A stretch of 64,000 nucleotides of DNA, from NCBI GenBank assembly GCA_008632985.1, contig QPGO01000013.1, positions 124,001 through 188,000 of the forward strand, read 5' to 3'. The notes beneath the pieces are model-generated. The model had not been told where the DNA came from. It did no database searches and was given only the letters and a program-made list of their open reading frames with translations. The position numbers were made by a program, and so were the translations under genes. Positions 8,828 through 60,333 of the stretch are shown here, piece after piece; within the stretch, counting starts at the first letter, position 1, and every line of letters starts with the position of its first letter. This stretch comes from Psammoneis japonica. Its lineage: Eukaryota.

Positions 8828-10129
8828 ATGACGGATCGAACATGGCTTGGACTGTCACTGGTTGTAGTGTTAATCGCCTTGTACGTTAGTCATGTGATGA
8901 ATGGTAGGAAGCGCCGTGAAGAAAATCCTGATGATTCTTCCGCTAAAGCTGCTACTCCAGACCGGATACTAAAAGAACAACAACAACATGCTCTTTATGT
9001 CATTGGGGATTTACACGGTGATGCACATTGCGCTCGGTATTGGGTCGAACAAACGGGGTTAATTCAATTCGGACAGGGCAATAGTCAAGTTGAAGATTGG
9101 GTATGGATAGATGAATCATCGTCACTGCTCTTTATGGGCGATTATGTGGATAAAGGAACAACATCGAGACAAACCGTTGAATTTGTAAAAGCCTTGACGA
9201 CTCGGTTTCCTCAGCACGTGCACGCCTTGTTGGGGAACCATGAAATGGAGTTGCTTCGAGATCGTGATCAGCTACAACGATGGGGAGATAATGCGGACTT
9301 TTTTCAGCTTCCATACGCGTCGGTTCATCCCTCGGAGTACCTTAATTTCTTGGAGAATCGCGATGAAACGGATGATCTCGTGGTGGACGCATTGTACAAT
9401 GCCAGTCTCGAGCTCTATGGAGTTGGGAGTTATAGAACCATAATTTCACCATCCGTTGCGACCGAGCGATCTATTTTTAAATTTATGGATCCAAGCATGC
9501 ACCAAGTCGTCCGGGAGCGACTGACGCACTACCAAGAAACGTACTTGAATGCTTTTTCGTCTGGAACGGATCTCGGAACGTGGCTTGAACAAAGACCTTT
9601 ACTACATCTTCATAACGATACAATGCTCTTTGTTCATGGCGGTGTAAGCAGTGAGGTTGCTAACTTGATGAAATACCTTGGCGGTGATGATGTTTCCACT
9701 CAGAATGTCGTTGCCATGATCAACAGTCTCTTGGCCAAGAATGCTCATCAAGAAACGCTCAACAAGTTCTTGGATGAAACCACGATTGGAAATGCAATTT
9801 ATGAAATGTTGGTATACAGAGGCAACTTGAAAGTGAACGAGGGATCCTGTCAAGAATTAACAGAGACAATAATGCCATCCTTGGGAATATCCCTTGTGGG
9901 AGTCGGCCACACACCCGACGCCAACGTTCGCATCCTTTGCAATGGCGCCTTGCTGGCGTTGGATTCAGCTCTGTCAAGGTGGTTTCGTAATTCAGGAAAC
10001 GAGTATTGCCGGGGTGAAAAGGTCCAGATATCATCGAATGGTCGTTTCCGGTGCAACAAGATCAACCCGAAATGCCAAGGTCAAACAATCCGCGTCACTG
10101 ACAATGGAAATGTTGAAATCGTTGAATAA
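8828..10129 (+). CDS. Calcineurin-like metallophosphoesterase (Shewanella-like phosphatase type) with N-terminal TM anchor
   Basis: IGDLHGD, GDYVDKG, LGNHE, FVHGG, VGHTP motifs in the expected order. Confidence 0.9.
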   Translation: MTDRTWLGLSLVVVLIALYVSHVMNGRKRREENPDDSSAKAATPDRILKEQQQHALYVIGDLHGDAHCARYWVEQTGLIQFGQGNSQVEDWVWIDESSSLLFMGDYVDKGTTSRQTVEFVKALTTRFPQHVHALLGNHEMELLRDRDQLQRWGDNADFFQLPYASVHPSEYLNFLENRDETDDLVVDALYNASLELYGVGSYRTIISPSVATERSIFKFMDPSMHQVVRERLTHYQETYLNAFSSGTDLGTWLEQRPLLHLHNDTMLFVHGGVSSEVANLMKYLGGDDVSTQNVVAMINSLLAKNAHQETLNKFLDETTIGNAIYEMLVYRGNLKVNEGSCQELTETIMPSLGISLVGVGHTPDANVRILCNGALLALDSALSRWFRNSGNEYCRGEKVQISSNGRFRCNKINPKCQGQTIRVTDNGNVEIVE

Positions 10130-10281
10130 GAAAGACACACTACTTGTTCATCATCATGCTATCTTACATAATATTTATTTTAAAGCTCGAAAGGTACATA
10201 CAGTACGCGAAACATAAAATCATAAGGTTTCATAGTGTACTCTGTGCTCAGGGTTGAAATGCTTGTGATCCCGCACTGCAA

Positions 10282-10926
10282 CTAGAAGATCAACTTGAGA
10301 ACGAACAACATCATGAGCGACAACTGTCCGACTACCATTGAATCATGATTGGACATCATCCTGAAGCTCCCAGAAGTCGTCAATTCCCTGGTTTCAAGGA
10401 GCGTCTCAATGTGTTCCGGATCGATCGTTCCTTTGTCGTGCATCTTAATGAGCCACACGTTGTAAGCATCCGTGTACTCTCCAGTCGTCGGTGGTCTTGC
10501 TTCATCCACGGTTTCGTTACCGCAGGTGCACTGCGCCGTATCTTGGAGCTGTCTGCCATGAGGACCAAGGTGTATGGTCTCAATAGCTCGCCTGCCACTG
10601 GCATCGTCAAAGAGAGGCGCTTTCCTTTCGCACCCTCGGCAGTCTCCCGCGACCAGAAAGCGGAAGCGAAAAAATCTTGCCTGCAAAGACCGATCGCGTC
10701 GCTCGGCAATCTCCTCTGCCAAGATGATTTCTGCATTCGTGACTCGTCGAAATAGAGGATCGCACAGGGTTGAGTTTGTAAGGTCATTGTACGTGATGCG
10801 GAATCCGCGTTCTGTCGCGTTCCTTTCCAATTGCGTCACGGCGTCAAAATCACCTTGGAATTCAAGATCTACCTGAGATTCAAACGTGTTGACCTCATCG
10901 CTGCAATTCACGTCCACAGAAGTCAT
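10282..10926 (-). CDS. Hypothetical diatom-type protein (possibly 5'-incomplete) with C-terminal hydrophobic tail
   Basis: 214-aa ORF with CDPLFRRV, GDCRGC, GRRxLQ-like segments; lies next to the TpA-depleted block. Confidence 0.55.
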   Translation of the reverse strand: MTSVDVNCSDEVNTFESQVDLEFQGDFDAVTQLERNATERGFRITYNDLTNSTLCDPLFRRVTNAEIILAEEIAERRDRSLQARFFRFRFLVAGDCRGCERKAPLFDDASGRRAIETIHLGPHGRQLQDTAQCTCGNETVDEARPPTTGEYTDAYNVWLIKMHDKGTIDPEHIETLLETRELTTSGSFRMMSNHDSMVVGQLSLMMLFVLKLIF

Positions 10927-11335
10927 AGGCCAAAAGCAGTTTCAAGTTTGACTTGAATCCGGTTCAAGATTTCCAGAAAAATGAAACAAAACTCTCCCTT
11001 GATTGACGAGTTGTACTGTATGTTGTTGTGTAGCGTATAATCTTTAGTCTCTACCGGTAGCTAGATGAGATTAGCTTTTATCAGGCTGCACGCAGCGAGC
11101 GAGCTTCACCTCTGGCTACGTCTGGCTGTGGCTGCTGGTTTGCTTCTGGGTGAGCAAGGCATGCTTGGACGACGGAATGGTTCACCCGGCACCTTGCCGG
11201 CACACCAGCCAGCAGGGAAAGTGGCACAAATCTCGAATGTTTGCTCGCTTCGTGGCAAATTTTTTGACACTTTACACATTCAACGGACGAGCTCGGTGAT
11301 GCCGCCGGCACCCGGCTCAGTTCTGTCGATGAACC

Positions 11336-11350
11336 TCATGCGACCTCCTT
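11336..11350 (-). promoter_or_regulatory. Fossil bacterial Shine-Dalgarno plus ATGA stop/start overlap
   Basis: Minus strand AAGGAGGT-CGC-ATGA; TGA ends the aminotransferase frame and the overlapping ATG opens MRFIDRTEPGAGGITELVR*. Confidence 0.6.
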
Positions 11351-11960
11351 CTTCTTGGAGGCGAAGATGGCGAGGGCCACCTCGTCAAGCACCTGGCTGA
11401 ACACAGATCGACGACACAGAGCGGGGTGATTGCCGCGGGTGCATGCAGAAGATCCACAGATCAGATGCATTGCAAGCCAGGAATCCACGGATGTGAAGGG
11501 GGCATCATGGACACGGATGTGAAGGGCACTGTGGACAGGCCCAGCAGGGTGGTCGAGGACCATGACGATCCAGGTGCTGCAGCCACAGATTGTTGCAACT
11601 GCAGCACCGGGGATGCCCAGATGCTTCACATCTTCATCCAGGCTCCAAGCTCACTTGAGGCCATGAGCAGGCCTTCATCTTCAACTGTGGTGAGGGCAGT
11701 GTCGACTGCTGCACAGGCAAGGGGGCTGTCGCTGAACGTGGTTCTGTGCTCGCCAGGAGTGAGGGTCATGGCCATTGCATTGGTCAGGAGCAGGGTGGCA
11801 ACCAGAAAGCTGCTGCCCACACCCTTGCCTCCATGACAAGGTCCAGCATCGTGCCATTGTGCTGGCAGGTCAAGGAACCCCAGCCGAGCTGATGCCAGAC
11901 CAGAGCCATCAGCCCAACAGAGTTCTTCTGCGCCAGCAAGCCACACACTTTTGGTCACTT
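11336..11960 (-). pseudogene. Decayed C-terminal half of a bacterial-type class-III aminotransferase (ArgD/LysJ-like)
   Basis: Across frameshifts reads TCQHNGTMLDLVMEA-KGVGSSFLVATLLLT...LTPGEHRTTFSDSPLACAA...VEDEGLL...ICGCSTWIVMVLDHPAGPV, matching the PDxxTxAKGLGxGFP / HGTTFGGNPLACAA / VRGxGLxxGxxL pattern. Confidence 0.75.
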
Positions 11961-14900
11961 GTCAACAGTGCAGGATGGCTTTTTTGTGATCTGTTTTAGC
12001 CTCATGGCACTCATCCCAGCAGCCCACGTGATTCATGAACACGCGCCATTCCAGCTTGCTTTCTTCCATTTCCCTGCAGCATTTCTTGTTGCATTTCTTT
12101 TTGTCACACCCACAACCTGATGCCAGCACATTTTTGTTTCACGACCATCTCAAAAAACCTTGAAACACTGCTTGACAAATTTTCTGAGGGGACAGTCCCC
12201 CACAAAAAGATTGGGTCTTGTTGTCTTTGATTGATTGAAAAAAATTGCAGCTTGTCTGCCCATTTGTTGCTCATTTGTTTTGCACTCACTCACTTGCTCA
12301 TTTGCAAATCATGCGTTTGCAGTTGTTTGTTTGGCTTGCACGTTGGGTGGCTTTTCAAGTGCAAAACAAGAAGGAAAGAGATGGCCAAAACAGGAGGCTT
12401 CAAGTGATGATTGCCCATGCATCATGGCTCTTTTGCATCTCTCTAGCCCTCTTTTCCCTCTTGAGAGTTGTGGCGTTCAATGCCCTGCAAGATGGCACAG
12501 GTGAGCCAGGCTCTCCCCAGCCTCTGCTCTGCGAGTTGAACTCTAAAATTGCAAAAAGTGTGTCAGTTGGCCAATTTCTAAAAATCACTTAGTTTCCTGT
12601 GTCTCTTTTGGTGTCTCTGCTGTCTGGGTTTGTCGGCACAAGCTTTTTCTTCTTCTCTGTGGTGACTGCATTGTGGGTGACCTTTTTGGGCTGATCTTTG
12701 TTTTTGGCTTGTTGTCAAGGTGATCCCTGCCCTTCTTTTTGGGGTTGGAGTCAGAGTTGTGTGAGTGCAAACATTTTGCCCAGATTTTAGAAATTTTCAA
12801 AGTGCCAGCCACCAAATGCTGCTCAGCAGTGTTTGTCTCCACTGTTTGTTGCTGCTGCACAAAAAAAACATGAGTTTGATGTCCGCGCACAAATGGAAGC
12901 ACAAAGCAAGCCATGAGGTGAAGAAATGCTCACTTGCTGCCCATTTTGCATGTTGCAAGGCAGCAAATCATCATTGTCATCAAATGATTTGTTTTTTTTC
13001 ATTGACCACCCAACAGATTGAGCAGCCCTGGCCCCACATGCCTTTGTCCCACTTTTTCTTTTTTGTGCATTTCTCATGTTGCTTTCCCCTGCGTCTTTTT
13101 TTTTTCAGGACATTTCACACAGAAAATTGAGAAAAAGGATTGTTGAAATGGCAGCACCATTCTCCACCTCATGTCTCAGGTTGTTTTTAACTTGGGTGAA
13201 GCATGCATGCTGGGGCATGACATTGTGTTTGTCTGCAAGAGAACATGTGCCATCTCAGTGCTTCTTGCATGAAAAAAAAACGCGCGCTTCCCGCCAGTTG
13301 TTTTTTTTTGCGTTTTTCCCTGAGACTGTTTGTGTGGTGGTGTGCTCAACTGCAGGGTGCGCGTTCTTTGTGCACTGTGGGGCACAACATCAAAAAGAGC
13401 AATCTTTTGGCAAGGAATTGTTTTTGCACAAAAATGTGAAGATTTGTTTTTTGGGTTTGATGTGGGCTGCTGCCCTCGTTGCCAGCTGGGTTGTCTTGGG
13501 GACACCCACATCTTTGCACAAGTTGAACAAAATGGTTGTCCCTGAAACTCTGCTTGCTCAAGGGAGACCAGTCTGCTGCTGTTTGGGCTTTTTGTTCTCC
13601 ATGAAGAGCCGCCAATCAGTGAAAGGAACATGTTTTTAAGCTGGTGGTGACAGAGATTGGCAAGAGCAGCAGACCAACCCCCAGTCCTTTGCACAATGGT
13701 GGGAAACACATTTGTGTGTGCATGTTCATCTGTGCTGGCATGTTTCTGCACCCCATGGTCTTGAGTGCATTTGTGCCAAGCACACAGTTGAAATGCTCCC
13801 CAGCCTTTCTCAGGCCGCTTTTGTCAGCAACAAATTTGAAGAAAACAGGTTCCCAAATTTGTCTTTGGGCATGAAACAGAGAGCCCAGCTTTGGCACATG
13901 CGAGCCACACACAGTTGTCGTCATCTGCTCACAGTGCCGCTCTGCCACCCATGGCCTTTTCTGACAACTCCAGCTTGTTCTTGCAAACCTTAGCACCAAC
14001 AAGGCTCACAGTTCAGGGAGCAGCATGAGATCCCACCCAGGAAAGCTGGCTGGACCACATTTGTGCTGGTTTGAGGAAGACAAAGAGCCAGGGGCAAAGA
14101 ACAGGCTTGATGTGGGGACAGCTGTGCTGCTGATGCATGACAATGCATGCCACAACAGCAGCATGGCTTGGAGGGACCACACACAGTGACAGGCTGCAGA
14201 CAACATCAACAGCAGCTGTGTGGGCTGAAATTGACCCGCTGACCTGTGCCCCCATTGAGGAGATTTTTAACTTCTCCCTTGCCCAGGCTGGTCATGCTGG
14301 CACTGGCTTGCTTCTTCTTGTGGGCATCTGCACAGTGTGTGGAAGGGGGGGGGACTCCCCTCACTCAGATTTTTTTGCAGCCCTGCAAGTGCCTGCTCAA
14401 TTTTTCTGCAGCGCCCATGTGCACTTGTGCAAGTTGAGTCATTGCTTCACAGAGCAAGTCAACCAAGAAGTTGTTGCTGTGTGTCCATGGTCTGCACAAG
14501 CACCCCAACTTTGTCTTGACAAAAGTGCCATGTGTTGGAAGATTTGACCAACACTGCTCCGCGCACATTTTTTTGTCTGAAATCATTGTTTGAAAGGTTT
14601 GAAATCCCAACAAACTGCTCTCACATGTGTGCAGGGTGGTGAGAAGGCAACAAGACAAAAAAGTTGAAAAAAACTCCAAAAAGTGCTCAATTGTTCAAAA
14701 CAAGCAACATCCCAACCTCAACAGCGAGACACCAACTTTGGCAGCTGGGACAATGAAGAGCATGGGAGATGAAACAGAGATGTCAGTGCCAGCCAGTCTC
14801 AAATGAAAACAGAGCTCTGTGGGTTTTGCACTCAATGTTGCTGACAGCAGTGTTGGTTTTAGATCACTCAATCTGTGTGGGCCAAGAAGGGGCTTGTTTA

Positions 14901-16561
14901 TCTTTGGTGAGCTGTGGATGTCCCTCATTGTGGTCATTTTTTGGTGGCAGTGAAAATGTGGTGCAACCGCAGCACTTGAGGCCCAACTTGCACTGTTGCA
15001 TTGTTTCAGTTGGAGAGCAGCGCTCCTCACTTAAAAAAATCCACACACACAAAAGGAGATCAAAAGAAGATGCAAATCAAACTTCTTGCTCAAGAACACA
15101 TGCAGCTCATCATGATCTCAGTGCACAATGTTGGGGCAAACTGCTTTTTGTGCAGCTGGTGTTGGCATGGCCACTCATCATTGTGGGTGCTGCTTTGAGC
15201 TGTGTCATTGCAGCATTTGTGTGGCAGGCAGAGAAATTGAAAAAGTCCTGCTCTGGTGTCACAAGAGTGCAACATCATCTTCAAAAAATCTTGCTGGTGC
15301 CTTTTTGTCTCAGCATGCTTTTTGCACTCAATTCCAGGCCCTTGCAAGGTTCTTTTTGTTGGAGGACAAGAGAAAGCAAAGAAGCAGCAACATGTTGGCA
15401 TTGGAGCACAATGCACAAAGCTGCACTTCCCATTTTACCTTCCATTTTTGAGTGTGGCACATTCTTCTTTTTTGCCAGCAGCCAACTCTTGCTGGGCTGT
15501 CTTCTTGACATGAAATGCCCCCCAGATTGCACAGTCAAAAAATGTCAGATTCTGTGCAGCAGGCAGACCCAACCTGCTCCTGCTCAAGATGCTTCTCAAC
15601 CAGATTGTGTGGCACACATCTGGGCAAAAGAGCTTCTGGCACAGAAAGGCATTTTTTTTTGCAGCTGAGGGGCGGGGTGCCACAAATGTCTGTGCCCTCT
15701 TGTCATGCAATGCATCATGCATCAGAGGCAGCAATGCAGTGGTTTCCACTTTCCTTTGTAAAATTTTGAGTGTGCATTGTTGAAATTGTCAACAAGCAGA
15801 ACTTGAAAAATGCCAGCAAAAATGCTTGACAAAATGAAGCTGTTTTTTGCATTTTATCTGATGTCTCATTGACTTTTCTTGCACAAGCTTCAATCAAATG
15901 CATGCAATGTTTAACTCAATTGGGATCAAAATCCATTTTTTGTTGTGCATGGTTTGGTTTCCTTTTGATCGCAATCAATTTGAACTTGGTTTTAACTTTG
16001 TCCTCCTCACTCACATGTGTGTGTGTCTTTGCACGTGTGCAGTCTGCAGCACTTCACGCACGCACATGACCCACCTTCATTTTTCTTCACTTTTGCACAG
16101 CCCGTTGGTCCACGGGTTTTCAGCACATGTTTTGCATGCGCAATTTTCCACACATTTCACAACAGCACACCCTCTCCCCAAAGTTTGAAAAACGAGAGCG
16201 TGTGCTGTTGTGATTCACGTGGATCCTGCGTGTGGTCACAAATCTGCAAATCAACAACCGGCCATGGCGGTGAAAGACTTTGCCCCATTGGCCGACGACA
16301 GCAGCTCAACGCGTGGTGATGCCTGCCATCCTTCTGGTTGGTCAAGATGGGGTTTTATTCGGGCACAGCTTGAATTTTGTGATTGCGAGTGTGCTGTCAC
16401 AAATCTGCCGCATCCAGAATGCTGAGCTGCTGGCGTGTTGTTGTGTGTTGTGTGCACGCACGTCACAAACTTGCTTTTCTGCAGCGTTGTTGTGATCGCG
16501 TGTGCGAGAGTTTTGCATCCAGAATCATCACAAGTTGCCATGAATTGCACTGTCCAAACAA

Positions 16562-16831
16562 GGCATGCACAAAAAGAGGTTCGTTGTTTTTTGACACATT
16601 CGCTGGCAACACACCCGTCTTCTCCAATTTCTGTGTCCAGACCCAGAAAGACTGCAGGCGGTGCTTGTTCCTGCAGCTCCAGAACCACACACATGAAAAG
16701 TTCTTTGCCGCATGTGACACTCTTCAAAAAAGGCATGCACAAAAAGAGCTTCATTTGTTTTTGATGTGTTCACTTGCATCACATCCATCTTCTCCAATTT
16801 CTGTGTCCAGATCCAGAAAGACTGCAGAGGC
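16562..16831. repeat. Degenerate direct duplication (~100-bp unit, ~170-bp period)
   Basis: GGCATGCACAAAAAGAG...TCTTCTCCAATTTCTGTGTCCAGA.CCAGAAAGACTGCAG at ~16562 and ~16732. Confidence 0.85.
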
Positions 16832-18281
16832 AGAGAGTGGGGAGACAACCCATTGGAGGTTGCCTGAGTTGTTGGGCTCATTTTGAAGGCTTCCCAAGTC
16901 TCTCCGCTGTGGTTGGTTCATCTTTGTTGTGCTCTCACAACGTTTTCTACACTGTTTGACAATGAACAAGGTGGCTGCCAGCACTGGCAGTGGCTCTTCA
17001 AGAAAGAGAACTGCAGCAGCTGCTGCAAACTCGCCTGTTCCAGAATCGGCGGCGCCGGATGCACCGGCAAGTCCATATTGCTGTTCCTGTTGGTGGTGTC
17101 AGTTCATCCACATTGCACTCTCACAACGCATTCTGCATTTTTTTGGCAACGAACAAGGTGGCTGCAAGCAGCGGCACTCAAAGAAAGTGAGCTGCAACTG
17201 CTGCAGACTCTGGGGTGCTGTCTCCGTCGGCGTCATTTAATTTGAGTGTAAACAACAAAGTGGAATGTTCATGGTGCAATGCAAATGATTTTAATTTGCA
17301 GGTTTTGCAGGGATAGAGGGTGGGCACTCTCACAGGGAAAACGTGCCCCTGTTTCATGGTGAAACATTTTTTCTCATGGGGAGGGGGGTCTGATCCCACA
17401 GCACAAAAATGTTGATCTGTCACAGCTGGCATGTCATTGCCAGCCACACAACTAATGAGGTTTGAAACCACAAAAAAATTGTCTGTGAAAGGAACAAAAA
17501 TCACAATGAAAAGATGTGTGATGATCACCACATTGCGCGCTCTGATGTGCCGCCCTGTTGCGCAATGTGTGCTGCTCAAACACACCAGCCAAGTGGCGCC
17601 CCCAACTTGCCGGCAGCTGGCTGTTGCTGCTGCACCCTGCAAATTGTCTTGCTGGCAAAAACAATGTGTTGAAGCCACAGAGAAAGCCCTCCGGGGCACA
17701 CTCTCTCTTTTCATGAGATTTGGCCACATGCAAAACTGAGTTTGTGGCTGTTTTGGGAGTGACAGAGAGAAGCACCCTGGTTTGGACCTGATTGCTGTGG
17801 AAACAATGAAAGGGCTGTTGCCCAAGCTTGTGAGTCAGGGCTGGGAGAAAAGCGGAGGAGTGTTTTGCCAAATGGGTGCTTTGCTCGCAGAGCTCCACTG
17901 TTGGAAGTGTGGAGGAAGAAAGAAAAGCAGGAAAAGCACAGCATCTACAACTTCAGAGCCCCCAGGCATGCACGCAGCAGAGATGACGGAGTTTAGAAAC
18001 AAGGGCGGCAACGCACAGTCGTGTCGCACAACGGACGTGTATTGCCCTATATTCTTTTCATGAGGGAATTTGATCATTTCCAGTCAAACAGGTTAAATTT
18101 TTCATAAACGTCAACATTGCCGAATATGTTTTGATTGGATTATTACAGAATTAGCGATTTTGAAAAGAATCGGCGCGGGCTTTTTCCTGGAAGCGGACCA
18201 CAACATACTACACTGACTTGCTTCTGTGGGAGGAGGTGTGTTGGTGTTGTGCCGTGATGCTAGAGAGCATAATAAAGAAGA

Positions 18282-19905
18282 ATGAAGGCCCAAAGTGAAT
18301 CTGTCGACACTCTTGAGAGAGGGGTGTCGTTCGTTGCTGGCGGCGACGAAGACGTGGCTTTGCTAGATGAATCCAGCGTTGAGAGCAACAGCGACGAGAA
18401 ATGCACCAAGAAGAGCACACGAAGGGAAACAACTGCTATCCGGTTTCTTTGGGATGAAGTTAGTTCTTATTGGAACTTGTTTCGGAAAAACAGAGGTTTC
18501 AGACTAGCGATTCTTTCTTACATCTTTGGGCAAATGGGAGAATGGCTCTCCTACATTGCTGTGATCAGTCTTGTTCAGCGCTTGGTCGGAGAGGATAACC
18601 CGAATTATCACACGTCGCTTGGCATTACCGTCTTGATTCGACTGTTGCCGGCTGTCCTTTTGAGTCCTGTGGGAGGTGTCTTGGCGGATTCAAGAGACAA
18701 GCGAAAGACTATGATTGTCCTCGACCTGCTTGGCGCTACGACGCCGCTCGTTTTCCTCGTGGCTACATTTTTTGAAAGCTCAATGCATGGAATTTCCATT
18801 CTTTATTTTGGTTGCCTGTGCCAGGCAACTGTCTATGCTCTTTATGAACCGTGCCGGGTTTCTCTTTTGCCTCTGCTTGTTATTGGGAATGACGACGATC
18901 TCAAGAGGGCGACTACTCTGTCGGGTATATCCTGGGCAGCCACATCTTGCTTTGGTTCGGCACTTGGGGGCTTTGTAACATCGTACTATGGCGCTCGTGC
19001 ATGCTTTTGTAAGTTCACATGTTTGCTCGTCTTGATAATAGACGGTTATCAGGACTCGCTTCGATTTCTCACGACTTTGCTGATTGCTCTCGCTCATTTG
19101 TTTTGCTCCCGAAAAACTAGGCTTGGATTCTTGTAGTTACATCCTTAGCGCCTTTCTCATGTATCAGGTGGGTGGAAGCTGGACAGTCGCTCCAAAGGCA
19201 GGTTGTGATTCTGTGTGGAAACTAGTCAAGAGCATGACCTTTGACGGAGCCAAATACCTTTTGAGTTCATCATTCGGTATGTTGGTCTTCTTCAACGCGA
19301 CCGGCAACTTGGTTACTGGTGCATTTGACGTATTAAACTATGCACTCTCTGAGCAAAGCTCTGGAGGAATGTGGTTATTTGACACCATGGATACAGAACA
19401 GAAGCTCGGGGTTATTGTTGGTATCGCTGGTATTGGATACATTATTGGGCCGGCGTTCTCGGAACCTTTTACCGATCCGAACCGTCCCAAGGGGGTTCAA
19501 CTCATGTGCATCCTTGGCCTTTTGGCAATTTTGGTTGGTTGCCTCGGAATTAGCAACTTTCATCCGTATTGGTTGGTTTGCTTGTTCAGTCTGATCCGCG
19601 CGGCAGGGGTTGGTGTTCTATGGTTAAACTCGCAGTTTTTGTTGCAGAAATTGACCCCAAAGGACATGCTTGGACGCGTGTCAGCCGTCGACCAAGCGTT
19701 GGCGTTGCTATCGGCGGCTTTGTCCTCCCTATGGTGTGGCGTGCTGCAAGATCGAATACACTTGGATGCGGATCAAGTGTCGGGAGTACAGGGTTTTCTT
19801 TGCGCAGTCTTTTTAGTGTCGTGGGCAATGTACCACTTTTCTGGACGAGGTGCGGCTTGTCTAACATCATTTGAAGACAATGTTCCAATGAAAAAGGGTT
19901 CGTAG
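18282..19905 (+). CDS. Major facilitator superfamily transporter; intron 19009-19120
   Basis: Multiple TM segments, MFS motif A GVLADSRDKRK, C-terminal LQKLTPKDMLGRVSA; GTAAGT...CTAG intron joins the two ORFs. Confidence 0.9.
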
Positions 19906-20529: not shown

Positions 20530-20800
20530 GGTGGATCCACCTGCCCAATGACGGATCCTCTTCGTGTGCCGCTGGCATCCGACAGTGACCGTCTTCTGAT
20601 CGGAAAGCTTTCAAACTTTCAAAACTTCTCATTCCATGCGTTGTTGTGAAATGCAGAGGATGTCAGTGTTCTGTTCTCATCATCCTTGTCAACTGGATCT
20701 TGCTGTGAAGAAACATCATCCTTGCCTTTGTTGTGGCTCTGCAGACTGACCACAGTTCCTTCCAATTCCTCATGCAAGGTCGCTTTTACGCAGCTCTCCA
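20530..20800 (-). pseudogene. Helicase-associated (HA) domain pseudogene fragment
   Basis: AWNEKF(frameshift)ESLKAFRSEDGHCRMPAAHEEDPSLGRWI resembles the HA consensus W..F..L..F...GHC.VP..Y...P.LG.WV. Confidence 0.75.
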
Positions 20801-20899
20801 TCGTGCTTTTGCGCTCTTTTTGCCTGGTGGGTCACCGCCATTGTTCTCTCTTTGTTAAAATGCAGAGTTAAAAAGCCCAGCAGAGCAGAGCAGGGAACA

Positions 20900-21895
20900 G
20901 CAGAAGGAGGCACAGAGGCAGCTGCAGTGACAGCGGAGTAGAGCGGGCACAGAATGCAGGACGCAGGGCATTTGGCAGAGGGAGTGGGGGGTGAAGGGGC
21001 GGGGAGAGAGGAAGCAAGTCGGAGGGCATGCATGGAGAGGTGAAGAGTGAAAAGCAACAATGCAGGTGTTGCAGGTAAGGTGGGAGCTCCAGAAGCATCA
21101 AGAAAAGGAATGGAGAGGAAGGCCAGCAAGCGGAGACAGCAGCAAAGGCAGGGAGACTTGCACACCATCAGAGGGAGCGTTGGCAAGAGTGGAGGTGATG
21201 ACTTGCTGCTGATGTTCATGACAAAGATGGTGGGCTGGCAGACCAGGAAGAGCAGCTGACTTGACTGGAGTGATCAGGGAGGAGGCAGAAAGAGCAGAAG
21301 CGGAGGCAAGAACCGGAGCGCAACGGCGGAAAATCGTGTGGAGGCACAGAGTCGAGCGGGGGTTGTGCCAGGAGGACAAAGACAGGCAAAAGCAGCAAGG
21401 AAGGGCAACAGTGACACCTGACAGGAGCTGAGTGCCTTGAGTTGCAAAGCAGAAAGAGCAAAGAAGAGAGACCATGAACAATGGAATGGCGGCAGCCGTT
21501 GGATCTTGGAGGCCAAAGCCGCCAAGCGAAGCAGGAAGAAGGAAGGCAACGGCGAGAGAATGATCAGGAAGAGGAGCAGCATGGGAAGCAGCACAGCCAA
21601 GAAAGCAATGAATGGTGCTGAGAAGAGAGTCTTGAAAGGAGGAGGTCCAAAGAAAGGGATCAGGAGGGTTGTCGGGATCAAAGTTGTGGTGGAAATCAGC
21701 GCCAAGAAGGTGGGCAGAGGAAGGGGGGTGAGGCAGTGCTTGAAAAGTTGACCTTGAGTTTGCTTGTCATGAATGTGGGTGAGAAGCATGCTGACTTTAT
21801 GGGAGAGAGTGGAAGAGGTGGTAGAGAGGAAGGAATTGGCAAAGTCTTGGGAGCCAAGAGGCTGACCGAGGAAGCGGACACCGGAGGTGAGCTCG
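20900..21895 (-). mobile_element. Truncated CRE/SLACS-like non-LTR retrotransposon, RT C-terminal/thumb region
   Basis: LTSGVRFLGQPLGSQDFANSFL (~21815-21890), QTQGQLFKHC, PASLGGFGLQD (~21500-21535), LPPLLSPLAGLPL; broken by frameshifts. Confidence 0.65.
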
Positions 21896-29674: not shown

Positions 29675-31204
29675 TCATACACCACACAACCATTGGAACC
29701 AACGGAAACAATGACGCAAGTTCAATCGAATTGATTGGCATTCTCTGCTAACGAACCACTTGGAGACGAAAGTCAGAACAGTAGATCCAGTTGGAGAGCA
29801 GCTGGATTGACCGAACGGCGGTAATGTCGGGTCAACAAAAAAGTTTGCAGTCCAGAAATCTGGATCGGAGTGAAGAGCCTGAAGTTGTGCAGGAGCGCTT
29901 CCGCCTTCAATATCTGGAGAGCCGATACGACCTTCAAACAATACCAAGACTTCTTTCTTGTCGTAAAGGAAAAACTGAAAGCCATGATCCGCCAAGAGTA
30001 AGATGGGTACATCGGTGGGACTGACGGGAGCCGACATCGGACTCATCTGTACTGTCCACCCGTCAGAGCTGCCGCAATTGTACCTACTTCATTTACTTCA
30101 ATCATTGTCTTCTGGACAATCAAGTTCAACACTTGACAACTTTCGTCACGGAAAATGCCACAGAATCCACCACCGGCATCTTTCGCAAACGGGGCCAAGA
30201 GACCAATAGTCTGGGGAGCTTTCTTGAGGATACCTTCGTAATGGGACGCGAATCGAAATCGTGGTAGCGCCAAGGCAACACGTTTTGATTGAAGGGACGA
30301 CATCGCTTCCAAGACACTTTTGACGACACGGCATTCAAGCCGTCATCTGTTGGCAGAACCACCACCATGGAGAGGAAGCCTGACGCATGCTTCAATTGAA
30401 CAATCTGATATCCAGGAATGGCGTCATGAGAGTAGGGAAAGTACTCTACCTTGTGCATAAAGTTGAAAGGAATAGGCAGCTCTTCGGTTCTTGAAGGAGA
30501 AGTGAAAACTTGTTTGTAGTCGTAAAGCCTTCCACAAAAGGAAACTCCCAGTTTGCCTTCTTGTAAATCGAATTGAGCGCTAAAAGGACAAACGGTGGAA
30601 AAAGAGGACCATCATCCACTATCGAATCAATCAATCTGCGTGTCGATGCATTGACCCAGTTATTCACAATCTTCCCAGCTTTGGGCGAGGTAAAGTCGGT
30701 TTCTTGAAGGAACTTACCCACTATCGCCTCGTATTCAGGTGCAAGCTGAACCCCAGTGGTCATCCATACACTGTTTGCGATTTCCAAAGTAGGAGCTTGG
30801 CGATAGCACTGGTCGTTCCTACCAGATTTAAAACATCGGAGATAGCACTGGTCGTTCCCACCAGATTTAACGCGTCTCCCATCGCACGCCGTAGTCAGCC
30901 GCGAAACCGTATCTTTCCAATGGAGTGTGAAAGATCCATCATTTGGTGCTAGTGTGTTACAAAGTGACATGGCGCGCACAATTCCTCTCTTGCCAAAGCT
31001 CTTCCACCGGGTTACAAGAGATCGAACATCAAAGATACACCCCAAGAGGAGGAACACTCGTTATCTTTTTCATATAGCTCGTCTGTGAGTTTATCCGCGA
31101 AACGACTGTGCCCCTCCCTTGCAACTTCTACATGGTAGTCTCGCAATGAAGGATAGTACTAATAAAATAACGACGAAAGCTTTCAACTGGCTCTTCGACG
31201 ACAT
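29675..31204 (-). pseudogene. Serpin copy 1, multiply frameshifted, with a 39-bp internal tandem duplication (~30802-30870)
   Basis: Fragments in at least 4 frames homologous to the intact serpin: NNWVNASTRRLI, LALPRF, EVNEVGTIAAA, ADHGFQFFL..VLFEGR. Confidence 0.8.
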
Positions 31205-31624
31205 CGCGTTCTATCCGAATATCTCGATGCGTTTTTTCTCATTTGTGCCAAAAGAAACACGACCCATGCATTGGCGCGTCGCGTTCGCTGGGATGCGGGA
31301 CCAAATTCGCGACATACGACTACGACCAAAAGGACCAGCCTTTGTTCCGCTGACACCAGTGGCTGATGATTAAGTTGAAGACCTCAGTGCCTTCTTTCGC
31401 AGTTTTGGCTGCCGTTTGTGGGTCTTGCCACCCAGTGTACAGCTTTTAAAAGGACGTTTTGATATCCGAACTCAAAATGAGGCCAAAACTGCACTTTGCC
31501 ACGGCTTTGAATTGCAGAGCACACTGGCATCGAGGGGCAGTTTGATTTTTCCTTACTTAAAATCTGTAGCTAGCTTTCAAACCTTTGAAGTGTACAGAGT
31601 ACCGCCGGTTGGCTCCAAGCGTAT

Positions 31625-33184
31625 CTAGATCATCAAACATACAATCAGTGACACCAGCAGGAGCAATTGGTTGCATATTCGGTCGACCTGAAAGGGACTA
31701 TTTGCCGACGAACCGCTTGGAGGCAAGGTTGACTCAACAGATCCACTTGGGGGCAAATTCGAAGCTGCCGACGAACCGCTTGGCGGTAAAGTCAGCTCAA
31801 CAGATCTACTTGGCGGCAAAGTAGGATCCAAAGTCGGACTGACCGAACCGCGTGGTGGTAACATGGGATCAACATTTAGGTATGCAGTCCAGAAATCTGT
31901 ATCTGAGTGAACAGCCAGTAGCTGCGCAGGAGCGCTTCCACTAACAAACTCCGGAGAGCCGACGCGACCTTCAAACAAGACCAAGTCTTCCTTGTTGTCG
32001 TAAAGGAAAAACTGAAAGCCGTGGTCTGCCAAGAACAAGATGGGTACATCAACGGGATCAATGGGAGACGCACTCGTTAGGGATACTCCACCCACTGTTA
32101 CAGCTGCAGCAATTGTACCAACTTCATTTACTTCAATCAATGTCTTCTGAACAATCAAGCTCAACACTTGACAACTTTCGTCACGGAAAATACCACAGAA
32201 ACCACCACCGCCACTTGTCTCAAACGGAGCCATTAGCCCAACTCCCTGCTGGAGAGCTTTCTCGAGGTTCTCCTTATATTTTGACTCGAATCGAAACCGG
32301 GGTAGCGCCAGAGCCACACGTTTTGGTTTGAGGGAGGGCATCGCATCCAAGATACTTTCAGACGACACGGCATCCAAGCCGTCATCGGTAGGCAGCACCA
32401 CCACCATGGAGAGGAAGCCTACCGCATAATTCAATTGAACAATCTGATACCCAGGAATGGCGTCATGAGAATATGGAAAAACCTCTACCTTGTGCATAAA
32501 GTTGACAGGATTTGGTAGCTCTTCGGTTCTTGAAGGAGAAGTGAAAAACTTGTCTGTATTCGTTAAGAGTTCCACAAAAGGAGACTTCCAGTTCGCCTTC
32601 AAGTAGATGGAATTGAGAGCCAAAAGGACAAATGGAGGAAAGAGTGGACCATTATCCACTATCGAATCAATCAATCCGCGTGTTGAAGCATTGACCCAGT
32701 CATTCACTTTTTTCCCAGCGTCAGGTGACGTAAAGTCGGTTTCTTGTAGGAACTCACCAACAATCGCCTCGTATTCTTGAGCAAGTTCATCCCCAATATT
32801 CATCCATACACTGTTGGCGATTTCCAAAATCGGAGCTCGGAGATTACACTGGTCGTTCCCACCAGATCCAACACATCGCCCATCGTATGCCGTCGTCAGT
32901 CGCGAAACTGTATCGTTCCAATGGAGCGCAGAAGATCCATTATTGCAGAGCGCCATAGCTGTGCACAAATCCTCTTGTGTTCTGGATGTGCCACCCGGGT
33001 GTAAGAGATCAAGCATTAAAGATACGCCCCAAGAGGAGGAACACTCGTTATCGTTTTCATAAAGCTCGGCTGTGAGTGAATCCGCGAAACGACTGTGCCC
33101 CTCCCTCGAAACTTCTCCTGCTGTAAATGACTGTCTCGCAAAAATTGATAGTATAAAGATAAATAAGTGGTGCTTCGATGCCAT
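31625..33184 (-). CDS. Serpin (copy 2, intact) with signal peptide, LPPSGS repeats and hydrophobic C-terminus
   Basis: VNDWVNASTRGLI, NSIYLKANW, LALPRF, hinge EVNEVGTIAAAVT, FLADHGFQFFL, VLFEGRV. Confidence 0.93.
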   Translation of the reverse strand: MASKHHLFIFILSIFARQSFTAGEVSREGHSRFADSLTAELYENDNECSSSWGVSLMLDLLHPGGTSRTQEDLCTAMALCNNGSSALHWNDTVSRLTTAYDGRCVGSGGNDQCNLRAPILEIANSVWMNIGDELAQEYEAIVGEFLQETDFTSPDAGKKVNDWVNASTRGLIDSIVDNGPLFPPFVLLALNSIYLKANWKSPFVELLTNTDKFFTSPSRTEELPNPVNFMHKVEVFPYSHDAIPGYQIVQLNYAVGFLSMVVVLPTDDGLDAVSSESILDAMPSLKPKRVALALPRFRFESKYKENLEKALQQGVGLMAPFETSGGGGFCGIFRDESCQVLSLIVQKTLIEVNEVGTIAAAVTVGGVSLTSASPIDPVDVPILFLADHGFQFFLYDNKEDLVLFEGRVGSPEFVSGSAPAQLLAVHSDTDFWTAYLNVDPMLPPRGSVSPTLDPTLPPSRSVELTLPPSGSSAASNLPPSGSVESTLPPSGSSANSPFQVDRICNQLLLLVSLIVCLMI

Positions 33185-33674
33185 GGTGTTCTGCTGTGAT
33201 GTGTGTTATACGTGTTGCTGCGGTCTATTCCCGGTGTTCTCGTTGTGTGTGTCCATGGTCAAAATGATGGTTGTGTCGGGTCGTGAGTCGTGATATGGCA
33301 AAAAATAAGAACCCAGGACGCAGCGGAACCCTAACCCTAACGATGTCTGTTTCCACTGCTTCCGCTCTCGCAATTTCTCGACTACCGGTACACTCTCTCT
33401 AGAGAGTAGAGTTACCGGTAGTAGCTCTCTTGCTAGCTACTTGCTAGAAACTGGCCTTTCTCTAGATGTGGGATTGTTGCTACTTGCTACAGTGTGGTCC
33501 TGATGAGCGCTAAATCCATAGAATCGTCTCACTGCGCGCCTTCTCTGTGCATTTTGAAACTAAGTGTGCTCAACAGTGCCCGCTATCTTTTCTCTTTTGC
33601 GTGCAACAAAGCTAATAGCAAAAGCGATGAAAACTACAGCACCTTCAAGCATGTGTATATCACCGTTCAAGCAC

Positions 33675-35133
33675 CTAGGTCCAAATCATCAACCATGCAA
33701 CACTTGCGACCTGCAGCAACGTAACGCACATTCGGTCGAACTCCAAAGCCTTTGATAAAGAACCACTTGGAGGCAAAGTTGGATCGACCGAACCGCGTGG
33801 TGGTAACGTTGGGTCGACAAAGAAGTTTGCAGTCCAGAAATCTGGATCCGAATGAATAGCCTGCAGCTGCGCAGGAGCGCTTCCCTCTATCATCTCTGGT
33901 GAGCCGACACGACCTTCAAACAAGACCAAGTCTTCATTGTCGTCGTAGAGGAAGAACTGAAAGCCGTGATCTGCCATGAACAACACGGGTACATCAATAG
34001 GAGCCGATTCGACAAGTCCACCTAATGTTACAGCCGCAGCAATTGTACCGACTTCATTCACTTCAATCAATGTCTTCTGAACAATCAAGTCCAACCACTG
34101 ACAGCTTCCGTCCCTGAAAATGCCACAGAATCCACCACCACCACTTGTCTCGAACGGAGCTAAGAGCCCAATAGTCTGAAGAGCTTCCTCCAGGGTCTCC
34201 TTGTACTTGGACTCGAATCGAAATCGCGGCAGCGCCAACGCGACACGTTTTGATTGAAGGGAAGGCATCCCTTCTCGTACACTTGCAGATGTCAAGGCAT
34301 CCAAGCCGTCATCTGTTGGCAGCACCACCACCATGGAGAGGGAACTTGCTGCATACTTCAATTGAACAATCTGATATCCAGGAATGGCGTCATGAGAGTA
34401 GGGAAAGTAATCTACCATATGCATAAAGTTGACAGGATTTGGTAGCTCTTCGGTTCTTGAAGGAGACGTGAAGAACGTGTCTGTATTCGTAAAGCGCTCC
34501 TGAAAAGGAGACTGCCAGTTTGCCTTCAAGTAAATCGAATTGAGCGCTAAAAGGACAAAAGGAGGAAAGAGAGGACCATCATCCACTATCGAATCAATCA
34601 ATCCGCGTGTCGATGCGTTGACCCAGTTATTAACCACCGCCCCAGCGTTGGGTGAAGTAAAGTCTGTTTCTTGAAGGAATTCACCCACTATCGCCTCGTA
34701 TTCAGGGCAAGCTGATCACCTATGGCCATCCAAACGCTGTTTGCAATCTCCAAAGTAGGAGCTTGGCGAAAGCACTTATCGTTTTCGTCAGAATCAACAC
34801 ATCGCCCATCGTACGCGGTAGTCAGTCGCGAAACGGTATCTTTCCAATGGAGTGTAGAAGACCCATTATTTGGTGCCAGGGGGTTACAGAGTGACATGAC
34901 ACTGCACATTTCCTCTCTTGTAATTGCTGTTCCACCGGGGTGCAAGAGATCGAACATTAAAGATACACCCCAAGAAGAGGAACACTCGTTTTCTTTCTCA
35001 TAAAGCTCGTCTGTGAGCGAATCCGCGAAACGACTGTGCCCCTCCCTTGCAACTTCTCCCGTTGCACATGGTATTTTCGCAACAATAATGGATAGTATGA
35101 ATACAAACCCTTCAACTGGTTCTTCGATAACAT
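33675..35133 (-). CDS. Serpin (copy 3) with apparent frameshifts at ~34690 and ~35080 (consensus errors or young pseudogene)
   Basis: ORF pieces collinear with copy 2; hinge EVNEVGTIAAAVT; hydrophobic C-terminus. Confidence 0.8.
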
Positions 35134-35524
35134 GGCGCTGACTTCTTTGCTGATGCTCTCATTGTGATCTCGGCGCAAGACCGGCATCAAAGCGAACACG
35201 GCCACGCGCAAGAACGCGAAGAAGCCGTCGCGCATTTTTTCAATCGAATTATTCAACAGGACCTTGCAGAAACCATTCGACTTCAGGCGAGGGTGTGAAA
35301 GCAGTGTTGTTCCATCGATACAGTGTGTCTGCCACGATACACTCTTAGAGAACCGGTAGAAATGCAAGCACCGTCTCTAGAAAAAAGTTCACGTAGTTTG
35401 CTAGGCCCACAGGACTCTTGGTCTTGAATGGCACGGGGAAACACAGTTGTTCTTCGAAGTGCCTATATGATGGTACACACTTAAGAAAACCAGACAGTTG
35501 TCTCTAGAGAGAGAGAGAGAGAGT

Positions 35525-51557: not shown

Positions 51558-53299
51558 TACGGGTTCGTCGGAAGAGAAGGTATCTTTGTCTGATCAGCGT
51601 CCGCTTCGACCTTTTTCATATGATAAGTCCCCTACAGTTTCTCGTTGATAGGTATGTAAACCGTACACCGATTTCGTCACCACTGCGTGCTGAGCTAGAC
51701 TTACGATACAACGATGCAAGATCACTGATCACTGATGCGTAACACCCCTCAACAAAAAGAGATGATGACAATGAATGGGATGAAACTCGCGTCTCTTGTG
51801 GCGTCGTCAGGAAAGAGGCATAGCGGGTCGAATGAAGTCACTTCACCGCAGTGACGACGCGAAGAAAAAAGGCCTTTCTTTGTAGAACCTGGTACGAATT
51901 CTACGTGGAGCTGCGGAAAATTACGTTCGTGACAACGAAACGGGTGATTGGGTGGACAGCAGAAACCCGGAAAGGTGAACCGTAAGTACGCATAATTGAC
52001 TTGATTAAGTGATAGTTTTACTATCGTTAAAAGTGAATGACCGACTTTGCTTCACTTAAGACACGAATGGATGAACGTTATTTCTCCAGCGGTTCCAACT
52101 GTTCCAACTGTTCCAAACTGTTCCTTTAGCGATTTCACGATTAGATTTCACAAAATGCTTTCTCCGGAAATGTAGCTCGACAAAAGACATATTCTTTATA
52201 CGCGCTCTTCCCGTAAACGTGACACGTACGAATGAGGTGAAATGGACAAATTCGTTTTGAGCGCATTCATCATCTTACAAACCATTCAGTTCAACTTTGA
52301 TCGTCGCGAACCGATGACCACCACCCATCGTACGCATTGAAGTGCGACACTGCGACATCATGCCGCCACAGGGAAGCTTCACGTCACGTCACGCCTCCAC
52401 GCTGCGACACCGGTACTTAAACGCTGTAGAAAGCAAGACGTGGCATTTCGTTTTCGTCAGCATGTCGTCACACGCCACACGTCATCATTGCTTGGTACCT
52501 TCTTTCACTCCCGCCCCACTTCACGGCCGGGCAGCATGGATGCACGCAATTTGGTGACAGCAGCTCACATTCTCACAGCAATTTGAGCACATGCTTCTCA
52601 GGAGACCCAGCTGTCCTGCTGCCCTTCTGGCCTGTTCCAGCCCCAGGCAACCGCAACCCATCAAGCGAGATTTTTTGTGCGCAGCTTTTGGCATCGACAA
52701 TTTTGTCTCTGTCCAGCAGAGCTTGGCTTTTGTGGCAAACATCAAATGCCTTGATGATGTGATGCATTTGTGACAACAACGCATGTCTCCAACAACCAAG
52801 GTGCACATTTCATCACAGGAAGAGCACAGTGTCAGTTGGCGTTTCACGTTGTTTTGCAAACGCGTTGACCAGTGCTGACTCCTGCACGCGTGTGTGCCAC
52901 CCACATCAAAAACACACAATGTCAGCCACAGTGCAGCACACTGCTGTTGCCGCTCTGCCACCCCCTTTTCACCATTGCAGTTGCATGGAACCATCTGCTC
53001 TTTTCATTTGAAAGTTGCGCTGTTGTTGTCACAATGCAGCTGCGGCTCTGTGCAACCTCTTTTGTTGTTGCAGATGGCACCACTTCTTTTTGCACTCTCT
53101 TGTGTGGAGTTCAGCAAGTTGATTTTGTGTGTTGTGGTTCACACAAGACACTGCACATGTGCTTTTTCTGGTTGCCTCCAATGTCTTGTGTTTTGTTTGC
53201 TTTGCAGAGTTTCTGCAAAACTCGCATTTTTGTCCCAACGATTTTCAAATGACAGGCGCCACCATCTTGAACTTGTTTTTGTTTGTTTGCACTGTGACA

Positions 53300-54530
53300 C
53301 TTGCTGTTTGGTGCTGCCAAGCATCTGGAACTGCCTTGGAGGCTGTTTCTGTGCATCTGCATCACTTTTGCGGCACAGCTGATGTTGCCCCCCTCTCTGG
53401 AGTGCATTTGTTGCACAAACAGAAGTTCAAAAGCAGTGCAATCAAAATGGACAAGTCAGCCAAAGCAGCCACCAAGAAACATCTGGGGCTGGCAAATTCT
53501 TCCATTGGCGGCAGTGGCATTGCCCCAAGCAAACAATTCTTCAAGCCAGCCAAAGATGTCTTTTTGCATTGAGAGCTTCATTGACTCGTTGGAGAGGCAC
53601 ATTGCCAACCGGCGAGTTGGCACCATCAACCTCTCCAAACTTTGGTTGATCCCAAGATGTGCCCACAAGGTCTTGTGGAATTGAGCCTCTTGACCATCGA
53701 AGATCATGAGACCCAGAAGACCAGCCCTCTCTCTCTTTCAGGTTCTCATCACAGGAATGGTGTTGATGGGTTCAACATTGCCAAAGCATGAGTCCTGTTC
53801 CATGACACTGTTGTTGGTTGGTTTCATCAAGAATTTGCCAACAAGAATCAACTGCCAACAAAAGCATTTCTCAAGGAGAAGCATGACAACATGTTCATTT
53901 GTTGCGCAAGTGGAAGTGCAGCTTGCTGTTTGGCGCTGTCGAGCATCTGGACCTGCCTTGGAGGCTGCCTCTGTTCATCTGCATCACTTTCATGGCAGCT
54001 GATGTTGGCCCCCTCTCTGGAGTGCATTTAAACCACAAACAGAAGTTTGAAAGCAATGCAATCAAAATGGACAAGTTGGCCAAAGCAGCCAGTGAGAAAT
54101 GTCTGGGGCTGGCAGATTCTTCCGTTTGGTGGCAGTGCCCCTCAAGCAAACATTTCTTCAAGCCAGTTGAAGGTGTTCTTTTGCATTGAGAGTTTCTCGT
54201 TGACTCACTGGGAGCACATTGACCACCGGCAGGTTGCTCCAAAACTTGGTGCCATGAGCCTCTCCAAACTTAAGTTGACCCCAAGACGTGCCCACAAGGT
54301 CTTGTGGAGTTGAGCCTCTTGACCATGGAAGATCACAAGACCCAGAAGACCAGCCCTCTCTTTCATGTTCTTCATCATCACAGGAATGGCGTTGACGGGT
54401 TCAACAGTGCCAAAGCATGAGCCCTGTTCTATGACATTGTTGTCAATTGGTTTTGTCAAGAATTTGACAGCAAGATTTGACCGTGAATGCCCGCAAAAGC
54501 CTTTCTTGAGGAGAAGCGTGACAACATGTT
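53300..54530. repeat. Tandem duplication, ~620-bp unit, of a formerly coding segment
   Basis: CTTGCTGTTTGG..CCCTCTCTGGAGTGCATTT..GCCCACAAGGTCTTGTGGA..GACAACATGTT at ~53300 and ~53922. Confidence 0.9.
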
Positions 54531-55053
54531 GATGTTGGTTGCATTCCATCAGGAACATTGAGAAACACATTGCTGCTGTTTAGATGTGCTAGGTCAAGAA
54601 AGGAGTTGGTGTGCTTGTTGATTGCATCTGAGTGAACTGCTCTGGGTGATGAGAGAGGTGACAAGAGAAAGACCATCTCACACCACAGCATTTGTTTTTT
54701 TCTGTCAGATGTTGCAAGTTCACTTCCCCAATGGCCCAAGAAAAAAGGGCTGTTTCAAGGAGCCGCTGGCTCACCTTGCTGATTGGTGCAAGGCAGCTTG
54801 CCAACTGCAATGGCGCTTGTTTTGCAGAAGAATGCATCGCCATCATTGCTTGGCTCATGCCAAGATGGCAAAGGAAATTCTTGAGGGTGATGAGAATGAA
54901 ATGCAAGAGGCACATGAGGGCACCAAAAGCTTGCAACTGTGAGATGGAAACAAAGAGGAGGAGGATCAAGGGCAAGAGGCATGGATGTCTCAGCTGAGGA
55001 AGAGGAGGAAGACACAGAAGAGGAAGAGCAGGAGCAGGGGGGGGGGGGGGCGT

Positions 55054-55575
55054 GAAGAATGCAGAAGACTTGGCACTTGGAGACATGAAGGCAGAGAAGG
55101 AGAGGGCAGGAGACAGGCATTGCAAATGCTGGATGGAGCTCATGAAAGCCACAACTGGAGTGAAAAATGATGACGATCTCATTGGCCTTTGCGGCTTCAA
55201 GCCAAAATCAGGAGCGCCAGGAGCACCTGTGTTTCATTGGTTCTTGAGCAAAGGCAAGTGCCACCAACAAGAAAGCGCGATGACAGAGCAAACGTGTGAC
55301 AAAGTTCATGGAGCAGGGGAAGCTGCTGAAGAATGCAGAAGACTTGGCACTTGGAGACATGAAGGCAGAGAAGGAGAGGGCAGGAGACAGGAGACAGGCA
55401 TTGCAAGTGCCAGATGGAGCTCATGAAAGCCACAACTGGAGTGAAAAAGATGACAATCTCATTGGCCTTTGCAGCTTCAAGCCAAAACCAGGAGCACCAG
55501 GAGCACCTGTGTTTCATTGGCTCTTGAGCAAAGACAAGTGCCACCAACAAGAAAGCGTGATGACAGAGCAAATGT
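55054..55575. repeat. Tandem duplication, ~275-bp unit
   Basis: GAAGAATGCAGAAGACTTGGCACTTGGAGACATGAAGGC...CCACCAACAAGAAAGCG at 55054 and 55328. Confidence 0.9.
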
Positions 55576-60110: not shown

Positions 60111-60185
60111 TGCTCCTCTTGCACATCAAGCTGCACACAGTGGCAAGCAGCTGCTTTTTCACAAAGAACAACAAATTCTCTTGTG

Positions 60186-60189
60186 CACG

Positions 60190-60231
<42 letters not shown>

Positions 60232-60333
60232 ACCACACACACCACACACACCCCCCACACCACACACCACACCACACACCACCCCCCCCACCACACACCC
60301 ACACCACACACACCACCACACCACACCACACAC
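60186..60333 (+). repeat. (CA)n microsatellite grading into CACCA repeats
   Basis: Read directly from the sequence. Confidence 0.95.

Follow-up and report, generated by a model that had tools for sequence, protein, structure and literature searches.

Near-complete TpA loss in a composite, gene-free block of the diatom Psammoneis japonica, with chromatin-guided adenine deamination as a candidate cause

In ascomycete fungi, repeat-induced point mutation (RIP) introduces context-specific transitions on both strands of the repeat compartment, leaks into the flanks and needs duplicated sequence; it turns CA/TG into TA and lowers GC. The stretch considered here, a 64,000-nucleotide window of the 91-Mb genome of the diatom Psammoneis japonica (assembly GCA_008632985.1, contig QPGO01000013.1; C14:124001-188000, where C14 is the contig label for genome-wide coordinates), contains a gene-free block of 6.8 kb from which the dinucleotide TA (TpA) has almost disappeared. 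As in RIP, the changes are heavy, context-specific transitions that hit both strands and leak into the flanks, but TA is lost instead of gained, and erasure is as thorough in single-copy DNA, of which old and lost copies are possible, as it is in repeats, while a tandem gene family is spared.

This kind of mutation is known from one preprint on the chlorarachniophyte Bigelowiella natans, in which integrated DNA of nucleocytoplasmic large DNA viruses (NCLDV) as well as of virophages undergoes TpA-specific hypermutation (Mettrop et al., bioRxiv 10.64898/2026.01.13.699255). The spectrum was measured there in mutation-accumulation lines on single-copy silent viral inserts, the de novo rate is raised about 1000-fold with activity in a subset of lines, and ADAT2 is the proposed candidate (10.64898/2026.01.13.699255). 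Common to both organisms are the exclusive change of TpA to TpG/CpA, the involvement of both strands, the location in foreign or silent regions including single-copy DNA with genes spared (silence being presumed in the diatom) and clusters depleted of TpA and rich in CpA and TpG. What sets the present case apart is the lineage, as neither diatoms nor stramenopiles nor CpG appear in the main text of the preprint, and the near completion of the process, with an observed-to-expected ratio (o/e) of TA of 0.02-0.1 compared with 0.45 in the NCLDV region of B. natans. It also extends over about half of a 264-kb stretch, covers long terminal repeat (LTR) elements, a terminal inverted repeat (TIR) transposon, bacterial and unique DNA, is accompanied by CG decay and depends on context, with ATAT and ATAC most lost and TTAA and CTAA most kept. 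No diatom report of TpA loss was found in the literature searched, in which subscription journals are thinly covered.

In Phaeodactylum tricornutum, transposons in regions marked by H3K27me3/H3K9me carry DNMT5-dependent CG methylation (10.1101/2021.06.11.447926). Such methylation explains the CG to TG/CA part of the pattern and its restriction to such marked domains rich in transposable elements, but cannot make the faster change of TA to TG/CA. Deaminases of the TadA/ADAT2-3 and ADAR types convert A to inosine, which gives A to G; ADARs favour 5'-UAG and an engineered TadA accepts DNA, while the natural substrates are tRNA or double-stranded RNA, unlike the DNA considered here (PMC10661471). 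Editing of RNA before reverse transcription would, unlike this pattern, be one-stranded and restricted to retroelements. New here is the near-complete, domain-wide TpA hypermutation in a diatom over a DNA transposon, unique DNA and a bacterial fragment.

The TA-poor block and the direction of change

A two-state hidden Markov model (HMM) defined on TA places the edges of the block at 11121 and 17944, close to the 11125..17990 of a preliminary description, made from the letters alone, which had proposed a change-point analysis of TpA density. Over the latter interval 28 TA steps are left compared with 278 predicted from the background rate of the window (log10 P = -82); the "TpA-free island with sharp edges" of that description is thus real as an island, but TA-poor rather than TA-free. 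Within the block TA o/e is 0.06 vs 0.58 in the background and CG o/e 0.31 vs 0.97, and TG/CA o/e is raised (1.75 vs 1.15). About nine-tenths of the TA steps of the block have been rewritten to TG or CA, a change that the description had left unnamed. Its TA-rich string at the left edge is located at 11041-11064, TA resumes at 17994, and the heterogeneous content it noted, with a bacterial-like piece, duplications and unlike kinds of DNA, is confirmed: the block is a composite of three unrelated kinds of DNA, namely a bacterial argD(-argF') piece, a single-copy stretch of 3.8 kb and a non-autonomous TIR transposon that exists in many copies.

The direction of the change can be read from repeats. 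Fourteen repeat pairs were aligned, and three young pairs, two of which share a reference LTR, were chosen for high identity and one TA-rich copy. In these three pairs TA is lost at 57/97 sites and CG at 16/117 (Fisher p 3e-12), and per strand A is changed to G after T in 57/135 cases, compared with 4/249 after A, 6/231 after G and 6/220 after C. Only 2 of 59 changes at TA are transversions. Control gene paralogues show a mild TA excess (22/151 vs 21-32 of about 340 in other contexts). In a 379-bp pair all mismatches (15/15) involve TA, TG or CA steps and all CG sites (23/23) are kept. Four relatives of one TA-bearing LTR resolve 7/14 TA sites in both directions, which marks TA as the ancestral state. 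Among pairs of greater age the loss of CG has drawn level (246/309), and this is the state in which the block is found.

With respect to strands and context, neighbouring changes are not coordinated (110/218 alike, null 108), which rejects processive deamination along one strand. Measured per base and relative to normal DNA, much less TA is left in ATAT (0.003) and ATAC (0.015) than in TTAA (0.41) and CTAA (0.28); in the polarised pairs, YTAR sites survive more frequently than RTAY sites (30/68 vs 11/83, p 4e-5). Deamination at methylated ApT is not favoured: changes are few in the CA, GA and AA contexts alike, which bears indirectly on ApT that lacks a T before it.

The TIR transposon records the same change many times over. 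For its copies, 40 of 247 candidates were scored and 29 other loci fetched. Across 25 copies 100 alignment columns mix TG and CA, 18 of them also with TA, 50 with CG, 3 with both and 29 with neither. On a tree built from other columns, the 18 columns with TA, TG and CA need 71 TG/CA changes vs 82 when shuffled, while 175 control columns need 342 vs 574 on the same tree. As the TA columns are near the shuffled value and the controls are not, the element was not natively TA-poor and its copies have been erased largely one by one; the ancestor carried TA at between 18 and 50 sites within 1,191 bases, and the copies resolved it to TG or CA largely independently of the tree. Cumulatively, a TpA-directed hypermutation of TA to TG/CA is close to certain as the mutational pattern. 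The sequence itself shows in which direction it runs, that it acts after insertion and on either strand, that it is specific to TA and faster than the CG decay, and that its tracts ignore element borders.

Targeting, chemistry and competing explanations

The preferred reading, to which a probability of about 0.58 is assigned, is that silenced domains undergo chromatin-guided adenine deamination in addition to CpG decay. The block would be a silenced, gene-free domain of the diatom chromosome that accumulates inserted DNA and is rewritten in place by two mutational processes. The fast one, strictly TpA-directed, would change A:T to G:C and hit the strands independently, such that TA ends as TG or CA and no target is left; the slower one would be a decay of CG to TG/CA as expected from methyl-CpG deamination. 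As to the chemistry, deamination of A to inosine fits because the TA context is strict, the changes are nearly pure transitions and the strands are hit independently; a deaminase of the TadA/ADAT2-3 type would act on DNA and its product would be fixed at replication. The target would be chosen by silent chromatin, or by a guiding RNA, and not by the pairing of repeat copies.

This choice of target is where the reading meets its strongest competitor, the same TA to TG/CA process with targets picked by copy homology, as in fungal RIP, and leaking into unique neighbours, which is considered unlikely. A 264-kb region surrounding the window has 19 TA-poor segments, the block among them, which occupy 127,356 of 264,000 bases (48%) and contain most of the dispersed repeats of that region, as homology sensing would have it. 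The block is an instance of a pattern seen throughout the compartment. The TA-free margins of 126-421 bases beside TIR copies embedded next to normal DNA (L007, L022 and L024) resemble leakage as well. On the other hand, 4.6 kb of the block are at single-copy depth and have no detectable second copy, three tandem gene copies in the window (29783-35137), 78-80% identical, retain normal TA and CG, and of two LTRs that are 95% identical one has largely escaped. In the LTR element at C14:249191-256301 (L040), which has 277-bp direct repeats with TG...CA ends and a 5-bp target duplication, the 5' LTR and the body are erased with CG largely kept, while the last ~950 bases are normal; and one copy of the 379-bp repeat is erased in one half, with its first 13 TA kept and 8 of the last 15 lost. 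Taken over 25 block edges, TA o/e drops in one step from 0.70 to 0.03, and CG o/e declines over ~400 bases (0.96, 0.65, 0.55, 0.54, 0.38). The part-erased elements, the margins, the edges and the spared tandem genes speak for targeting by domain rather than by homology sensing. The preliminary description had held that the bias is not inherited from one element, which agrees with the composite block, the TA-bearing TIR ancestor and the partial erasure of L040 and of the 379-bp copy; its further proposal, a bias imposed by a chromatin domain, is what we infer as well.

With the domain as the target, a different lesion or a different enzyme might still be at work. Since an A to G change and a T to C change of the opposite strand look alike in sequence, a modified thymine (hydroxymethyl- or formyl-uracil) at TpA of silent DNA, mispairing with G, would leave the same products, and oxidised thymines indeed mark silent DNA in some protists. 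No TET/JBP match is present in the genome, where an incomplete assembly or a diverged enzyme might hide one, and conversion of TA is near-complete with almost no transversions, which makes the thymine lesion improbable. Slightly less probable again is error-prone repair, in which mismatches from methyl-C deamination trigger the resynthesis of patches by a polymerase eta-like enzyme that mutates A:T pairs. It would explain why TA and CG losses co-occur, why TA loss reaches a few hundred bases beyond CG loss, as given by patch length, and why both strands are hit without coordination; polymerase eta, however, mutates both TA and AA and makes transversions, while AA is spared here and transversions are rare in the young pairs. 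That the block is natively TA-poor, be it as one element or as a foreign insert, or that it is a misassembled contaminant, is already contradicted and has only the slightest probability. The bacterial piece does derive from GC-rich donors with few TA, and no single contig of the public run X1, which may be the source sample and hence not independent of the assembly, spans the full block. The anatomy, though, is composite, the ancestors of the TIR element are reconstructed as TA-bearing, and the bacterial piece is frameshifted and CG-eroded. X1 contigs cross the left edge (9500-11527) and the right edge (17508-19000), with a read depth of 50-71 across the unique part of the block vs 56-57 in the flanking genes, which argues against a contaminant. 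Both weaknesses that the preliminary description had seen in its own proposal, a single element with natively TA-poor active copies and a misassembled contaminant without reads over the junctions, are thereby removed.

Several points weigh against chromatin-guided deamination. Inosine, enzyme activity, methylation and histone marks are predictions made from sequence. The genome has an ADAT2-like gene, with the motifs HAE and PCIMC and the Asn of a CRNDRFGG stretch, a TadA-like gene and two PF02137 loci, but the first of these resembles a standard enzyme for tRNA editing, and none of the 9 PF00383, 5 PF14437 and 4 PF02137 matches, the PF02137 ones counted as matches only, presented itself as a dedicated DNA deaminase. 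Pyrimidines are preferred only weakly at the position after the edited A (69 vs 49, p 0.08). The sharpness of TA at the edges is partly built in by an HMM defined on TA, while the gradient of CG is not. The DNA called single-copy may be an old repeat with siblings diverged past detection, and common words are skipped in the genome search. In the bacterial piece the lack of TA may be partly native: its closest bacterial locus, L057, has only 6 aligned TA, the piece probably arrived TA-poor, and just one conserved Tyr codon visibly reads TGT; it hence demonstrates CG decay well and TA erasure weakly. X1 differs from the window at ~0.4% of sites in the unique part, and of 21 differences listed for this part 9 are CG changes and 1 is a TA change, so that current TA activity at the locus of the block is not shown.

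In favour of the reading, the genome has, next to the ADAT2-like gene, 27 matches to the DNA-methylase domain PF00145, on C43, C10, C59, C78, C27, C301, C297, C34 and other contigs; broken copies of the domain cluster on C297, C10 and C28. Separately, at L141 (G000:C79:87006-90176) a single 491-codon frame joins a reading of a deaminase domain to a 2OG-Fe(II) dioxygenase.

A wider proposal, which we hold tentatively and at somewhat less than even odds, is that diatoms carry a native chromatin-guided DNA adenine deaminase which converts TpA to TpG/CpA across silenced domains, whether repeated, foreign or unique, as a defence of opposite polarity to RIP that is shared with chlorarachniophytes as an old trait of the SAR (stramenopiles, alveolates and Rhizaria) group. 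If so, the defence would remove Tyr codons and TA target sites and would be a natural counterpart of engineered adenine base editors, at a time when a natural A-to-G enzyme on chromosomal DNA is barely documented. A second SAR lineage would join B. natans, and the reach of the result obtained there would grow from viral inserts to the whole silent compartment. As the footprint is readable in copy alignments, target choice, context and timing are testable in a group with genetic tools, and the half-erased L040 is a good natural substrate for dating the process. TA loss also has consequences for annotation: two of the three stop codons and every Tyr codon disappear with it, which creates long false open reading frames (ORFs) in dead DNA, and it distorts LTR-based dating and repeat annotation.

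Contents and surroundings of the block

The features of the block and its flanks are collected in Table 1.

Table 1. Features in and beside the TA-poor block (positions in the window)
Feature	Position	Strand	Basis or remark
Left flanking ORF	10282..10941	-	No known family; TA and CG normal
TA-erased, CG-eroded block (whole domain)	11121..17944		HMM edges and TA count
Left margin	11121..11289		TA 1 vs 9 expected, CG largely kept (o/e 0.73); may hold more of the argF' start (to about 11214)
First codons of decayed argF'-type carbamoyltransferase gene	11290..11339	-	Pairwise match to the next gene of L057, DNA alignment
3' part of decayed acetylornithine aminotransferase (argD) gene	11338..11940	-	Pfam, subfamily profile, tree
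Single-copy decayed DNA	11901..15719		TA 14 vs 268 expected, CG o/e 0.16
Tyr-free ORF, 299 codons	14769..15668	+	Most likely spurious
Non-autonomous TIR transposon, multi-copy	15720..17547	+	Ends CATCAGAG / CTCTGATG, 2-bp target duplication TG/TG
Right tail, single-copy, TA-erased	17548..17944		TA 1 vs 24 expected in 17548-17990; crossed by one X1 contig
Right flanking MFS transporter gene	18276..19905	+	Pfam MFS_1 E 8e-13; normal TA and CG

The argD(-argF') piece is best read as decayed, transferred bacterial DNA, and as such would be a gene-transfer record, part of an operon, caught in an erased domain. Its argD part matches Pfam Aminotran_3 (class III aminotransferase) with E 1.7e-7 and an argD subfamily profile in two frames (E 1e-22 and 7e-6), and the best matching solved structures are acetylornithine aminotransferases. 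The piece is frameshifted. GC is 0.59, no TA is present in 11290-11900, a 26-bp stretch is internally duplicated (tandem repeat 11486-11537), and in the alignment with L057 many CG have turned to TG/CA. A longer aminotransferase piece gave no match as a homology query; a shorter one, searched among 1.84 billion representatives, led to the closest loci, L057-L059, which are bacterial, two being labelled Myxococcota in the tree output. Over ~65 residues the piece is 54% identical to L057 vs 25-34% to paralogues of the host, no close copy being found in the host assembly, and in the tree it clusters with bacterial rows (92/95, which does not reach a starred branch). The L057 record itself is labelled Enterobacteriaceae, yet its GC is 66% and the arg genes fall with loci of Myxococcota type, so the label may be a binning error.

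That an argF' start belongs to the bacterial piece is likely, but not firm. The short match shows 14/42 identities (pairwise E 4e-6) to the OTCace_N protein encoded downstream of argD in L057, and its ATG overlaps the stop of the upstream argD reading as ATGA; a profile of 31 sequences did not score the piece significantly. For an extension into the left margin there is a weak pairwise match and none to the profile. A further ArgF match near 11090, unsupported by the profile, was dropped.

Within the single-copy part, the search of the own genome returned one 160-bp match at 70%, and Pfam found no family in the six frames of 12001-15750. The preliminary description had singled out the 299-codon ORF without Tyr; the absence of Tyr is verified, but as TAA, TAG, TAT and TAC all require TA, the long frame most likely just follows from the loss of stop codons. 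It was rejected as a real gene: it has no Pfam match, 7% of 200 simulated sequences of the same dinucleotide make-up yield a frame as long, and X1 carries two 1-base insertions inside it.

The TIR transposon contains internal duplications (16548-16827 and 16916-17210), and 13 of the 16 other copies that have both ends show an exact 2-bp target duplication. Terminal inverted repeats together with a variable target duplication of 2-3 bp characterise CACTA/EnSpm-type elements, and the label CACTA/EnSpm-like, which these features match, serves as a lead only. In X1, too, both block and TIR copy occupy this position, and no empty site is seen there; among metagenome contigs sought through the left gene for an orthologous empty site, 84 pattern matches were obtained and none was confirmed.

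Concerning the flanks, the placement of the island "between two normal genes" stands on the right, where the MFS transporter gene is found, while the normality of the left ORF is judged from composition and length; this ORF has no Pfam match and an Atlas search gave only hits <0.9. An 808-base contig of run X2 with a depth of 305 lies over the left ORF (window 10157-10964) and X2 covers little else of the stretch; the kind of run is guessed and the contig is no evidence of expression. Rfam at gathering score gives 0 matches in 10900-18300.

Elsewhere in the window, TA-erased blocks are located at 20532-21797 and at 52441-64000, the latter with 11 TA in 11.5 kb and continuing to C14:192903. The tandem copies at 29783-35137 are serpin-like by eye and are duplicated genes that escaped erasure. 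In the genome as a whole, 24 silicon-transporter matches are present (best E 2e-208), on which the assignment of the host to the diatoms was based, and one 1,511-codon frame contains three silicon-transporter domains (G000:C38:226311-230342).

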